Sequence record: MW598459
Reading direction: 5' to 3' (one strand)
Length of the DNA stretch: 64,000 nt
Source: Escherichia phage vB_EcoM_RZ
Shown here: in pieces, positions 8,141-50,308 of the stretch
How positions within the stretch are numbered: the first letter of the stretch is position 1
Layout of the letters: each line of letters opens with the position of its first letter
Notes under the pieces: generated by a model
What the model saw: the letters and a program-made list of their open reading frames with translations, nothing else
Told to the model about the DNA's origin: nothing
The model's database searches: none
Position numbers and translations under genes: made by a program

Positions 8141-9700
8141 ATGAAAAAGAATGCATTAGTTCAAAAATGGTCCGCTCTGCTGGAAAACGAAGCTCTTCCG
8201 GAAATCGTTGGTGCTTCTAAACAAGCTATCATCGCTAAAATCTTTGAAAACCAGGAACAAGATATTCTGACCGCTCCTGAATACCGTGACGAAAAAATCT
8301 CCGAAGCATTTGGTTCTTTCCTGACCGAAGCTGAAATCGGTGGTGACCATGGTTATGATGCTACCAATATTGCTGCTGGCCAGACCTCTGGTGCAGTAAC
8401 TCAGATTGGGCCGGCAGTTATGGGTATGGTTCGTCGTGCTATCCCGCATCTGATTGCGTTTGATATTTGTGGCGTACAGCCTCTGAACAACCCGACTGGC
8501 CAGGTATTTGCACTGCGTGCAGTATACGGTAAAGACCCTGTCGCTGCTGGTGCTAAAGAAGCTTTCCATCCGATGTATGCTCCGAACGCTATGTTCTCTG
8601 GTCAGGGCGCTGCTCAGACTTTTGAAGCACTGGCTGCAAGCAAAGTTCTGGAAGTTGGTAAAATTTATTCTCACTTCTTCGAAGCAACCGGTTCTGCACA
8701 CTTCCAGGCTGTTGAAGCTGTAACTGTTGATGCTGCTGCTACCGATGCTGCTAAACTTGACGCTGCTGTTACCGCTCTGGTTGAAGCTGGTCAGCTGGCT
8801 GAACTGGCTGAAGGTATGGCTACCTCCATCGCCGAACTGCAAGAAGGTTTTAACGGTTCCCAGGATAACCCGTGGAACGAAATGGGCTTCCGCATCGACA
8901 AACAAGTTATCGAAGCTAAATCCCGTCAGCTGAAAGCAAGCTACTCCATCGAACTGGCACAGGACCTCCGCGCTGTTCACGGTATGGATGCTGATGCCGA
9001 ATTGAGTGGTATTCTGGCTACCGAAATTATGCTGGAAATCAACCGCGAAGTTATCGATTGGATTAACTACTCCGCACAGGTTGGTAAATCTGGTATGACC
9101 AACACCGTTGGCGCTAAAGCTGGTGTGTTTGACTTCCAGGACCCGATTGATATCCGTGGTGCTCGTTGGGCTGGTGAAAGCTTCAAAGCTTTACTGTTCC
9201 AGATTGATAAAGAAGCCGCTGAAATCGCTCGTCAGACCGGTCGTGGTGCAGGTAACTTCATCATCGCTTCCCGTAACGTAGTTAACGTGCTGGCTGCTGT
9301 TGATACTTCTGTTAGTTATGCTGCTCAGGGTCTGGGTAAAGGTTTCAACGTTGACACCACTAAAGCTGTGTTCGCTGGTGTACTTGGTGGTAAATACCGC
9401 GTATACATCGACCAGTATGCTCGTGCAGATTACTTCACCATCGGTTACAAAGGCGCTAACGAAATGGATGCTGGTATCTACTACGCACCATATGTTGCAC
9501 TGACCCCGCTGCGTGGTTCTGACCCGAAAAACTTCCAGCCGGTTATGGGCTTCAAAACCCGTTACGGTATCGGTATCAACCCGTTTGCTGACCCTGCTGC
9601 TCAGGCTCCGACCAAGCGCATTCAGAACGGCATGCCGGACATCGTTAACAGCCTTGGCTTGAACGGTTACTTCCGCCGCGTATATGTTAAAGGAATTTAA
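8141..9700 (+). CDS. 23: Major capsid protein gp23
   Basis: 519 aa (T4 gp23 is 521 aa); strong match to remembered T4 gp23 throughout. Confidence 0.97.
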   Translation: MKKNALVQKWSALLENEALPEIVGASKQAIIAKIFENQEQDILTAPEYRDEKISEAFGSFLTEAEIGGDHGYDATNIAAGQTSGAVTQIGPAVMGMVRRAIPHLIAFDICGVQPLNNPTGQVFALRAVYGKDPVAAGAKEAFHPMYAPNAMFSGQGAAQTFEALAASKVLEVGKIYSHFFEATGSAHFQAVEAVTVDAAATDAAKLDAAVTALVEAGQLAELAEGMATSIAELQEGFNGSQDNPWNEMGFRIDKQVIEAKSRQLKASYSIELAQDLRAVHGMDADAELSGILATEIMLEINREVIDWINYSAQVGKSGMTNTVGAKAGVFDFQDPIDIRGARWAGESFKALLFQIDKEAAEIARQTGRGAGNFIIASRNVVNVLAAVDTSVSYAAQGLGKGFNVDTTKAVFAGVLGGKYRVYIDQYARADYFTIGYKGANEMDAGIYYAPYVALTPLRGSDPKNFQPVMGFKTRYGIGINPFADPAAQAPTKRIQNGMPDIVNSLGLNGYFRRVYVKGI

Positions 9701-9720
9701 TCCTAGATTAAATTAAATAG

Positions 9721-9751
9721 AAAGGGACCCTTGAGGTCCCTTTCTTGTTTT
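9721..9751. terminator. Bidirectional intrinsic terminator (GGGACC-loop-GGTCCC flanked by A- and T-runs)
   Basis: 6 bp GC stem at 9724-9729 / 9735-9740, followed by TTTCTTGTTTT; A-run upstream allows function on the minus strand too. Confidence 0.7.
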
Positions 9752-10032
9752 CATACCATACCATTTAAATGAACTTCTACCCGGCGCTTGATAAGGTCTC
9801 TGAAGTTAACATTGTTTTCTTGAAGTTTCAACCAGTTACCATTTTTATCTTTAGTGTGAGTAGAATAATTACCATTCCACCAGAAATCAGTGTCATATGC
9901 TAAGTTTTCATATTTTTTAACTAGTTTGTTCAGAGCATTACCATTAACACCATTTGGGTATTTGTTGACCAAGGCAATAACTTCAATTTCCAGATTTTTA
10001 AAGGTGTTCAGAAGGAAAGTTGCTTTGTTCAT
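9751..10032 (-). CDS. Hypothetical early protein (93 aa) embedded between genes 23 and 24
   Basis: Minus-strand ORF with its own early promoter and conserved leader (CTGGAG...ATG); T4 carries segD at this position instead. Confidence 0.5.
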   Translation of the reverse strand: MNKATFLLNTFKNLEIEVIALVNKYPNGVNGNALNKLVKKYENLAYDTDFWWNGNYSTHTKDKNGNWLKLQENNVNFRDLIKRRVEVHLNGMV

Positions 10033-10073
10033 TTTTAAACTCCAGGTTTTGTTTGTTAACTCAGTATGGAATC

Positions 10074-10103
10074 ATTATGTCTTATCTTAATCTGGTTGTA
10101 AAC
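10074..10103 (-). promoter_or_regulatory. Early-type promoter (GTTTACA -35, CATAAT -10) with conserved leader
   Basis: Minus strand reads GTTTACA, then a 17-18 nt spacer, then CATAAT; followed by the ACTGAGTTA(A/C)CA leader and CTGGAG ribosome-binding site shared with cassettes at 31988 and 48868. Confidence 0.55.
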
Positions 10104-10109
10104 AACTTT

Positions 10110-10117
10110 TATAAATA
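10110..10117 (+). promoter_or_regulatory. T4-type late promoter TATAAATA upstream of gene 24
   Basis: Exact TATAAATA about 25 nt upstream of the gp24 ATG. Confidence 0.55.
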
Positions 10118-10142
10118 AAGTATATCACAAAAGGAAATAGCA

Positions 10143-11423
10143 ATGGCTAAAATTAACGAACTCTTAAAAGAGTCGACCACGACCACAAGTTCTTCGATTG
10201 GTCGACCGAATCTAGTAGCTTTAACCAGAGCTACGACTAAACTGATTTACACCGATTTAGTAGCACAACAGCGCACATCCCAGCCACTGGCGGCATTATA
10301 CGGTCTTAAATACCTGACTCAGCAAGATGAATTATCTTTCCAGACTGGTGCAACCTATTCCGGTGCAGTATCAGCAAAAGACCGTGCGACCATTCCGGTT
10401 TTTGTTGCTGGCACAGTTTATGCTAAAGACGATTTGTTCCAGTTTGAAAATGTAGTTTATAAAGCGCTGGTAGCAACTCCATTTGCTGGAGCAACGGGCG
10501 ATGAGTATGACCAGCTTCAAGAAGCGATGGTTAAATTGACCATCCGTATTATGTCCGAAGCTGCAATCACCGAACGTTTTGAAGGACCACAGGAAGTCGA
10601 AATTGCCGAAGCTAAATTTTTGGTTAACAAATGGAATGCTCCGGTTAAATCTCGTAAGCTGAAAAGCACTGTTACAGTGGAACTGGCCCAGGACCTGGAA
10701 GCAAATGGTTTTGACGCTCCAAACTTCCTGGAAGACCTGTTAGCTACCGAAATGGCTGATGAAATTAACAAAGATATCCTGCAATCCCTGGTAACAGTTT
10801 CCAAGCGTTATAAAGTTGCTGGGCTCTGTGATGATGGCCTGATTGACCTGTCTTATACTAACTCTCCGGAAGCTTCACGCAAGTTGTACGAAATCATGTG
10901 TGAGATGGTCTCCCATATTCAGCGGGCAACTTCTTACACCGCAACATACGTTGTTGCTTCTACGCGTGTAGCTGCAGTTTTGGCTGGTTCTGGTTGGTTG
11001 AAGCATCGTCCACAAGATGAGAAATATCTCTCCGATAATGCGTATGGTTTCTTGGATAATGGTCTACCGCTTTATTGCGATACGAACACTCCATTTGATT
11101 ATGTGACTGTTGGTGTTAAAGAAGATTTCGGTGGGAAAGAGATGGTGGGTTCACTGTTTTATGCACCTTATACCGAAGGTCTTGACCTGGAAGACCCTGA
11201 ACATGTTGGTTCGTTCAAAGTTGTCGTTGACCCAGAAAGTTTGCAGCCGTCTATTGCATTAATGGTTCGTTATGCGTTAGCAGCTAACCCTTATACAGTG
11301 ACTGCTGATGATAAACAAGCTCGTATTATTGATGCAACAAATATGGATTTGATGGCAGGACGTTCAGATATGTCTGTACTGCTTGGTGTGAAACTTCCTA
11401 AAGTTCTGACTGAAATAAATTAA
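10143..11423 (+). CDS. 24: Capsid vertex protein gp24
   Basis: 426 aa (T4 gp24 is 427 aa); gp23-like paralogue at the expected position. Confidence 0.93.
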   Translation: MAKINELLKESTTTTSSSIGRPNLVALTRATTKLIYTDLVAQQRTSQPLAALYGLKYLTQQDELSFQTGATYSGAVSAKDRATIPVFVAGTVYAKDDLFQFENVVYKALVATPFAGATGDEYDQLQEAMVKLTIRIMSEAAITERFEGPQEVEIAEAKFLVNKWNAPVKSRKLKSTVTVELAQDLEANGFDAPNFLEDLLATEMADEINKDILQSLVTVSKRYKVAGLCDDGLIDLSYTNSPEASRKLYEIMCEMVSHIQRATSYTATYVVASTRVAAVLAGSGWLKHRPQDEKYLSDNAYGFLDNGLPLYCDTNTPFDYVTVGVKEDFGGKEMVGSLFYAPYTEGLDLEDPEHVGSFKVVVDPESLQPSIALMVRYALAANPYTVTADDKQARIIDATNMDLMAGRSDMSVLLGVKLPKVLTEIN

Positions 11424-11455
11424 AAAGGGACCTTCGGGTCCCTTTATTTTTATTC
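11422..11455. terminator. Bidirectional intrinsic terminator (GGGACC-UUCG-GGUCCC)
   Basis: GC stem with UUCG tetraloop, A-run before and TTTATTTTTATT after; sits between convergent genes 24 and rnlB. Confidence 0.75.
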
Positions 11456-12457
11456 ACTAACTAATGCAATCCAAACATGTCTTAATGTTTCTCTTACATT
11501 TGCGATGAGTTGCTTTTTAACTTCAACAGGATTTTCCGTCAGGGACAATTCAAGACCTTCGCGCCCCGCTTCTTCCAGAATATCTTGGACTGTTAACCCC
11601 ATTACTTTTCCAAAATCCTTCGGTGTTACTTCCCCAATTTTACTGATAACATTGTTGATACGGTTAACAGTCACATAATCAGTGAAATTCCACAGTAAAT
11701 CCATATCATTTTGGCTCAGAACCACTGCAGCCTTAATAGGCTTATCAGACTTTTTCTTTTCACTGAATTTAGAGTTCTTACATTTAATCGCTACACGCTC
11801 GCCGTTAGGTAACCATGCAGGAACATCAGGTTTTAATACAAATCCTTCAGCAGTGAATACTTTACCTTCCACCTTTGCATCAAAATCAGTGGTATTTGCT
11901 GTAGTCAAACCTGCGTTATCCACTGTAAAATTGTAATCAGGGACAACAGAATCCAGGTCATTAGGGAGCTTAATTAATTCTTCAAAACTACCTGTAGCCA
12001 GGCGCGGCGCAACCTTAAACTTATGGATAATACAGAATGCTTCCATCAGGGTGTCAGTCAGGACGGATTCAAAACCATCTTCTTTAGTAACGCGGATATC
12101 AAATACATAAAAATCTTTATCACCGTAATCCACATTCTTCTGGATACCTGCCCCGGCAAACTCACCATAAATCTGGTATGCCTGGTAATTAATATCCTGC
12201 AAAAGTTTCTGCACAGATTTAATAGAATCTGCATAGTTCTTTAATACAATTTCATAACCATAGAAATCTTCTGCAGGCAGGATAGGTCCAGTGCGTTTCG
12301 CACATGTTACATTGTCTTGTTCAATGATTAATGAAAAGTTGGTACCATGAATCTTCTCGCGAGCTACCCATTCACCGCTGGTGAAGCCTTGCAGGCGAAT
12401 CTTTTCAATGAACTTGTTGTTATAGTGATTTTCAAGGCTGTTGTATTTCTTAAACAT
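11450..12457 (-). CDS. rnlB: RNA ligase 2 (RnlB)
   Basis: 335 aa; near-identical to remembered T4 Rnl2 (MFKKY.SLENHYN.KFIEK...[25 protein letters not shown]...); contains the ligase KxHG lysine motif. Confidence 0.92.
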
Positions 12458-31946: not shown

Positions 31947-31987
31947 TTTATGCTCCAGTGTTTTATTGTGTAACTCAGTATGAAATC

Positions 31988-32017
31988 ATTATGCACTGGA
32001 CCAACCCTGTTGTAAAC
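31988..32017 (-). promoter_or_regulatory. Early-type promoter (GTTTACA, 17 nt spacer, CATAAT) with conserved leader
   Basis: Near-identical to the cassettes at 10074-10103 and 48868-48897, including the CATACTGAGTTACACAA leader. Confidence 0.55.
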
Positions 32018-39924: not shown

Positions 39925-39955
39925 GTTTTGGTCCTCATCAGTAGTTGATGGAACC

Positions 39956-39985
39956 ATTATGTATAGAAAGAAGGGGCTTGTACAC
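39956..39985 (-). promoter_or_regulatory. Early-type promoter (GTGTACA, 17 nt spacer, CATAAT) with the -35 in a hairpin loop
   Basis: Minus strand reads aaggGGTGTACAAGcccctt...CATAAT; AAGGGG / CCCCTT stem at 39971-39990; conserved GGTTCCATCAACTACTGATGAGGA leader follows. Confidence 0.5.
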
Positions 39986-48828: not shown

Positions 48829-48867
48829 TTTATTCTCCAGTTTTGTTGTGTAACTCAGTATGGGACC

Positions 48868-48897
48868 ATTATGTCATAGCCCCATTTGGTTGTACAC
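48868..48897 (-). promoter_or_regulatory. Early-type promoter (GTGTACA, 17 nt spacer, CATAAT) with conserved leader
   Basis: Near-identical to the cassettes at 10074 and 31988 through the ribosome-binding site. Confidence 0.55.
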
Positions 48898-50240: not shown

Positions 50241-50278
50241 TTTTATTTCCTCAGTTGTTATCAGTAGTTGATGGAATC

Positions 50279-50308
50279 ATTATGCCTTAGCTCAAAGGAC
50301 TTGTACAC
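50279..50308 (-). promoter_or_regulatory. Early-type promoter (GTGTACA, 17 nt spacer, CATAAT)
   Basis: Minus strand reads GTGTACAagtcctttgagctaaggCATAAT, followed by the CCATCAACTACTGATAACAACTGAGGA leader. Confidence 0.5.

Follow-up and report, generated by a model that had tools for sequence, protein, structure and literature searches.

Capsid genes 23 and 24 of this phage are separated by a short spacer which was found to hold a self-contained cassette, probably an early gene whose 93-amino-acid (93-aa) product is an accessory protein binding a host macromolecule, either in host takeover or in counter-defence. The window (the whole stretch of 64,000 nucleotides that was analysed) is, judged by its letters, a Gaprivervirus of the SP18/DK-13 type. 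The 651 bp spanning the locus (9600-10250) show 99.5% identity to DK-13 and 99.4% to SP18 (Gaprivervirus, Tevenvirinae), and the same stretch has full-length matches in 26 more records at 87.7-93.6%. In SP18 this open reading frame (ORF) is annotated as hypothetical protein SP18_gp189, and the protein of the window is 100% identical to it. Being already hypothetical in dozens of public records, the 93-aa gene is little new in kind; the locus does provide evidence that it and the homing endonuclease gene segD stack as independent modules. An earlier note on this DNA had described the ORF as a minus-strand early gene replacing segD, and the coordinates and orientation that it gave proved exact, the ORF lying inside the interval between the two capsid genes (hereafter the slot). 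The features of the locus are as follows.

8141-9700, plus strand: gene 23 for the major capsid protein, bounding the slot on the left (ORF list, SP18 annotation)
9719-9745, both strands: G+C-rich hairpin, predicted terminator of gene 23 (plus) and of the 93-aa ORF (minus) (terminator scan of both strands)
9751-10032, minus strand: 93-aa ORF, stop included, with ATG start and TGA stop (ORF list)
10033-10067, minus strand: predicted 5' leader, its 5' end placed from the -10 element; Shine-Dalgarno GGAG at 10043-10040, with the ATG 7 nt on
10074-10102, minus strand: early-type sigma-70 promoter, -35 (G)TTTACA, 17-nt spacer, -10 CATAAT (scan, 10 of 12 matches)
10110-10117, plus strand: gene 24 late promoter TATAAATA (from the sequence)
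10143-11423, plus strand: gene 24 for the capsid vertex protein, bounding the slot on the right, a single divergent allele (ORF list, SP18 annotation, allele comparison)
11450-12457, minus strand: rnlB (ORF list)

Promoter, leader and terminator of the cassette

The promoter elements of the 93-aa ORF are located at 10102-10097 (-35, TTTACA) and 10079-10074 (-10, CATAAT) on the minus strand, along which the order is AAAAGTTGTTTACA-N17-CATAAT, a leader of ~35 nt, GGAG, 7 nt and ATG. A generic sigma-70 scan over 1 kb was not significant alone (3 sites vs 2.3 expected). The extended motif TACA-N17-CATAATG was counted five times in the 64-kb window, always on the minus strand, against 0.19 sites expected.

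10073-10100, minus strand: TACA-N17-CATAATG site of the 93-aa ORF
31987-32014, minus strand: TACA-N17-CATAATG site
39955-39982, minus strand: TACA-N17-CATAATG site
48867-48894, minus strand: TACA-N17-CATAATG site
50278-50305, minus strand: TACA-N17-CATAATG site

A leader of the type GATTCCATACTGAGTTA...AAAAC..CTGGAG..ATG is common to the copies near 10.08, 31.99 and 48.87 kb, that of the 93-aa ORF being 92-96% identical to two other copies, and a second leader type is common to the copies near 39.96 and 50.28 kb. All five copies run to an ATG after a purine-rich stretch resembling a Shine-Dalgarno sequence, which is GAGG in the second leader type and GGAG otherwise. The excess of the extended motif over expectation and the leader held in common with other copies establish that the promoter-leader cassette is real. 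The earlier description of an antisense gene with early-type signals is borne out. The conservation of the leader among the cassettes could be due to gene conversion between them or to a shared translational signal. Two of the other promoter copies lie between gene 32 and frd, a region whose T4 counterparts, frd.1-frd.3, are early genes. A G+C stem or a T-run is present upstream of the copies near 32.0, 40.0 and 50.3 kb, and these appear to resemble classical PeSL (promoter-early stem-loop) elements.

Early promoters of the T4 type consist of a GTTTAC -35 element, a 17-nt spacer and a sigma-70 -10 element, with neither a MotA box nor a late element. The promoter of the 93-aa ORF has the sequence characters of this class, and inspection of the minus strand upstream of the ORF revealed no MotA box and no TATAAATA. 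The leader folds with a minimum free energy of -1.6 kcal/mol (z +1.8, i.e. less structured than shuffled controls), and such an open, unstructured leader would suit efficient translation.

Upstream, the early and late promoters stand back to back, with only 7 nt between the late element of gene 24 and the early -35. The A/T-rich late-promoter sequence sits at the place of an UP element for the early promoter and may have that role. The TATTTATA element forms the boundary of the slot in occupied and empty slots alike. The -35 AAAGTTGTTTACA is kept in VR7, JS10, PhAPEC2 and RB69, and both the -35 and the point at which it joins the late promoter of gene 24 are conserved across Gaprivervirus, Dhakavirus and Mosigvirus. 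The -10 and leader are genus-specific, with CATAAT and GATTCCATACTGAG in Gaprivervirus and TACTAT and AGACCTATCAA in Dhakavirus and Mosigvirus.

The folding energy of the downstream hairpin (9719-9745) is -18.6 kcal/mol for the plus strand and -19.6 kcal/mol for the minus strand (z -3.9 and -3.3, respectively), and both tails are T-rich. The gene had been said to be flanked by a bidirectional terminator; the hairpin does fold on both strands, but it is present on the 3' side of the ORF only. Since a homologous hairpin is found in empty slots too, it is the ancestral terminator of gene 23. Rfam returned sub-threshold matches only for this hairpin.

From these elements a course of expression can be proposed. 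Host RNA polymerase with sigma-70 would start at GTTTACA-17-CATAAT soon after infection, and the ~35-nt unstructured leader and the 93-codon ORF would be transcribed away from gene 24. Transcription would then stop at the terminator hairpin of gene 23 read in reverse, and because of this stop little antisense RNA to gene 23 would be produced. The location of the gene among head genes may instead suggest a capsid-associated or head-assembly accessory protein which is expressed with them. Such a role is extremely unlikely, as the gene is on the opposite strand under an early-type promoter instead of a late one, is missing from most T4-like phages that share these capsid genes, and has distant homologues in early-like arrays. 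In the preferred reading, that of a host-binding accessory early protein, the product would be unneeded for the building of the capsid.

Cargo of the 23/24 slot and the relation to segD

The slot was surveyed, as the earlier note had proposed, in 78 T4-like loci retrieved from IMG/VR by means of the gp23 C-terminus, and 64 of these loci had gene 24 downstream. The contents of these 64 slots are as follows.

Empty spacer: 41 loci
93-aa ORF family alone: 7 loci
93-aa ORF family and a segD-like gene: 2 loci
segD-like gene alone, minus strand: 3 loci
segD-like gene alone, plus strand: 3 loci
ORF of ~500 aa, minus strand: 4 loci
Plus-strand ORFs with an Sf6 tail-needle-knob domain: 3 loci
Small ORFs, as in phage phi1: 1 locus

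The 41 empty slots have a spacer of 77-153 bp, and the occupied ones (23 of 64) hold at least six types of cargo, which upholds the view of the slot as a hotspot for different cargo. The 93-aa ORF family is present in 9/64 slots and absent from 55/64, segD-like genes are present in 8/64 in total, and cargo other than these two is found in another 8/64. An empty slot is made up of the late promoter of gene 24 with the terminator hairpin of gene 23 directly after it, and in an occupied slot a promoter and its cargo lie exactly between the two. The locus is a well-defined case of cargo set precisely between a late promoter and a terminator within a capsid block that is otherwise conserved.

Two of the other cargo types were looked at individually. 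The minus-strand ORF of ~480-500 aa is conserved in four loci (L051 3638-5140, L074 3639-5075, L078 3639-5153 and L079), and only weak sub-threshold Pfam matches (DUF7487, WSC) were obtained for it. The plus-strand ORFs with the Sf6-type tail-needle knob are located at L065 3944-4837, L062 3820-4092 and L061 3821-4027; PF16532 matches in L065 with an E of 4e-27, and the ORFs in L061 and L062 are cut down to the C-terminal part.

In T4, segD lies in the same slot on the minus strand, and this part of the earlier description is confirmed. Its further claim, that the 93-aa gene replaces segD, is not supported: the two genes occur in tandem in two loci, 41 of the 64 slots are empty and most T4-like phages have neither gene, and the ORF is the usual occupant in three genera. 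The tandem loci are Dhakavirus-like (L023 3659-4615 and L086 3527-4471) and have, under one promoter and one terminator, the order early promoter, ORF-family gene, TAA-AAT-ATG (3 nt gap), segD-like GIY-YIG gene and terminator. This order indicates that the segD-like gene was added behind the ORF and not swapped for it, and since they coexist in tandem, the ORF and segD do not represent alternative alleles of a single element. In its last codons the ORF encodes KAA in L023 and L086 and KIA in segD-free relatives, a difference as would be expected for co-conversion at the insertion of an endonuclease gene. The 93-aa ORF family and the segD-like genes are best described as independent, stackable modules.

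Directly before segD of T4, a TTTACA-17-TATTAT sequence with an upstream TG was found (L014 2454-2482; T4 ~107253-107281, minus strand), and T4 and other segD-only phages have TTTACA-17-TATTAT or TATAAT where the promoter of the 93-aa ORF sits. In a 2010 review, a segD-specific promoter could not be identified (PMC2988022). The slot, antisense orientation, terminator and position of the promoter-like site are the same for T4 segD and the 93-aa ORF, whereas the 93-aa protein is unrelated to SegD and is without a nuclease domain. Comparison with T4 SegD by hhalign gave a probability of 0.6%, and kinship of the two proteins was rejected. This result also bears on the idea of a remnant or accessory domain of a segD-related homing endonuclease element, which would agree with the common slot and with the co-transcription that is predicted in L023 and L086 for the ORF and a segD-like gene. 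That idea is largely refuted and keeps next to no probability, given the hhalign result and the presence of the gene in three genera without an endonuclease; moreover, genuine SegD-like slot cargos do match GIY-YIG/NUMOD-type families and the 93-aa protein does not.

The relatedness of the window to VR7 drops sharply at the slot, being close on the gene 23 side and distant in gene 24. For gene 23 a dS of 0.17 and 98% amino acid identity were calculated and for the 93-aa ORF 0.22 and 94%, while gene 24 has only 69% identity and a saturated dS. The gene 24 allele of the window is matched at 99.5% or more in DK-13, P479 and SP18 only, and at 91-92% in some Dhakavirus. VR7, EAWsc9, JS10 and L017 carry two tandem copies of gene 24, as against the single copy of the window. 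In view of this break in relatedness between gene 23 with the ORF and gene 24, the slot is also a recombination boundary.

The 93-aa gene family and its predicted fold

The 93-aa ORF is a real gene under selection. By tblastn, it was found in 236 phage records, each covering at least 80% of the protein. The dN/dS ratios (Nei-Gojobori) are 0.08-0.19 within Gaprivervirus and 0.16-0.27 on other branches, the latter from the two pairs with unsaturated dS. The 90% identity clusters of the three genera have 27, 48 and 62 members, and the variants listed are all full-length; in the 27-member cluster the 15 listed members all have 93 aa, apart from one of 97 aa which uses an upstream start. Disruption in close relatives, which had been named as evidence against the gene, was not seen, and the ORF is intact in every Gaprivervirus locus read. 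Its low GC content (33%) resembles that of the small ORFs which follow further promoters of this type, and the capsid genes have 44-49%. No paralogue of the protein was found in the 64-kb window.

Wherever it was seen in Gaprivervirus (90-100% identity), Dhakavirus (~63%) and Mosigvirus (~37%), the gene is placed between genes 23 and 24 in antisense orientation. The protein matches PHROG 6003 with an E of 3.6e-47 (residues 1-90 on profile positions 1-90 of 90), a family to which no function is assigned and whose members include SP18_gp189, VR7ORF190c, JS98 ORF173c / JS10_0170 and RB69ORF188c+189c. The copy of the window has the same antisense 23/24 position, promoter -35 and terminator as these relatives and does not differ from them in kind. 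Decayed copies also occur: among more distant carriers, that of RB69 (L100 5205-5640) is interrupted by two frameshifts, its fragments being annotated as ORF188c and ORF189c, the Tequatrovirus 310Ecol104PP (L007 2501-2800) has a frameshifted copy of a Dhakavirus-type allele, and the copy in mogra is decayed as well. As it is frameshifted in RB69 and 310Ecol104PP, the gene is dispensable. Outside the T4-like phages, homologues were found in Acinetobacter phage ABPH49 and two metagenomic contigs, all unrelated myoviruses, where they are not beside capsid genes and belong to long arrays of small ORFs on a single strand, adjoining T7 gene 0.6-like, DUF7222 and Phage_g100 families. Such arrays have the usual look of early regions and are probably early-like. 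An ABPH49-type query gave no match in IMG/VR.

The decayed copies in RB69, 310Ecol104PP and mogra, and a slot which takes many unrelated cargos, would also agree with a passenger ORFan on a recombinogenic promoter cassette, giving little or no benefit and kept since the slot tolerates it. This appears quite unlikely in view of the purifying selection (dN/dS 0.08-0.27), the full-length state of the listed variants in the clusters of three genera and the retention of the fold down to 32% identity, and an accessory early protein which is of use to the phage is preferred.

The protein has a mass of 10.9 kDa and a pI of 9.4 (8.0-9.6 across the family), and its description as N/K/W-rich agrees with the composition (N 17, K 10 and W 3 per 93 residues). 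AlphaFold2 with a 19-sequence alignment gave a model with a pLDDT of 93.6 and a pTM of 0.80, in which three helices (residues 3-24, 31-48 and 77-90) and two strands (52-61 and 67-71) forming a hairpin are seen. The product would be soluble and basic, the beta hairpin packing with the three helices. The protein aligns over its whole length with its homologues, and the invariant positions of the family alignment include M1, K3, F6, N30, G31, N32, K40, A45 and Q71; the N-G-N motif (residues 30-32) precedes helix 2, for which it would form an invariant cap, and Q71 ends the hairpin. The BFVD model of a 32%-identical homologue superposes on this model with a TM of 0.86-0.90, and the sole return of a structure search of BFVD was the family's own member. 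Foldseek gave no match in the PDB below E = 2.9 and a profile search of PDB sequences gave chance matches only (E >= 0.12), and the predicted fold appears not to be seen elsewhere.

The product had been described as without a recognised motif, and every search agrees in giving no function. Pfam gave no match at E values up to 10 (neither GIY-YIG nor NUMOD), and NCBIfam and PADLOC gave 0 families each, with no match in either to a curated model of known defence or anti-defence proteins. An exhaustive HMM search of 1.84 billion representative proteins returned 9 matches, made up of the family's own members and of repeat artefacts. The named members listed in the Gaprivervirus, Dhakavirus, Mosigvirus and ABPH49-type clusters are all hypothetical. 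A literature search on the ORF names of the family found nothing relevant, and no transcriptome of Gaprivervirus, Dhakavirus or Mosigvirus covering the gene was found.

Several candidate matches and labels were discarded. The long HMM matches P0025 and P0026 were rejected as repeat or low-complexity artefacts, and P0023 as a chimeric short contig. The label 'glycosyl hydrolase family 25' on L002 1652-1933 (EAWsc9) and the JGI name 'NADPH-dependent curcumin reductase CurA' on P0016 are without any profile support.

The basic charge of the protein leaves room for nucleic-acid binding or for a role directed at the phage itself. A small basic nucleic-acid-binding regulator acting on the expression of genes 23 and 24 or on phage DNA, hence its position at the capsid locus, would be in line with the basic pI across the family, the invariant lysines K3 and K40 and the fixed 23/24 position in three genera. 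The fold and structure comparisons, however, recognised no DNA- or RNA-binding fold, the homologues in unrelated myoviruses are not beside capsid genes, most T4-like phages are without the gene, and its frameshifted copies occur in viable phages. Such a regulator appears unlikely.

Probable function and comparison with known modules

The early-type signals, the small size, the dispensability and the early-like arrays elsewhere argue for a host-directed accessory early protein and against a structural one, and the product is most likely a host-binding protein of this class. The near-universal retention of the gene in three genera beside the capsid genes speaks against the accessory reading, and a function at the capsid locus could account for it. 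It can also be speculated that the protein is a counter-defence factor kept beside the capsid genes, which is made early and pre-empts a host abortive-infection system sensing the major capsid protein or the vertex protein. Its tight linkage to gene 23 would then keep an antidote allele with the capsid allele that it matches when they cross the recombination boundary at the slot. This proposal is considered highly improbable.

The host-binding accessory protein would be carried on a promoter-bearing ORFan module shuffled by recombination, for which the 23/24 spacer is one landing place, as it is for homing-endonuclease genes. T4-like phages carry and shuffle many small early ORFans.

For PeSL elements, cassettes with an ORFan have been described by Arbiol et al. 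2010 (PMC2839356) and Comeau et al. 2014 (PMC4122927), ORFan shuffling mediated by them is documented in T4-like phages (PMC2839356, PMC4122927), and mini-circles are excised through recombination between flanking PeSLs (PMC2839356). The anatomy of the 93-aa locus fits a promoter-bearing ORFan cassette of the PeSL-module kind. Like PeSL cassettes, it has a repeated sigma-70-type early promoter, A/T-rich upstream, before an ORFan, and insertions, deletions or replacements distinguish related phages at its site. Against a PeSL-type reading, this copy is without the upstream stem-loop which defines the classical PeSL and has the late promoter of gene 24 there instead. Its only hairpin is downstream and is borrowed from gene 23, and its site is within the conserved head-gene block and not in a hyperplastic region.

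In case of small early proteins, Alc and Emp (Gp94 of Mosigvirus AV110; bioRxiv 10.64898/2026.09.14.751387) are host-reprogramming proteins of T-even phages. The 93-aa protein is comparable to them in size class, predicted early expression, phage-restricted occurrence and a fold without known relatives. On the other hand, Emp of AV110 has 109 aa, adjoins motA and differs in gene and fold, and it was rejected as the identity of the 93-aa gene. The AV110 screen took only proteins with T4 homologues (bioRxiv 10.64898/2026.09.14.751387), and the 93-aa protein has none. If the 93-aa protein is a host-takeover or anti-defence factor, it would bring a new fold to that repertoire. With a confident predicted fold without structural relatives and with selection in three coliphage genera, it is a clean target for study.
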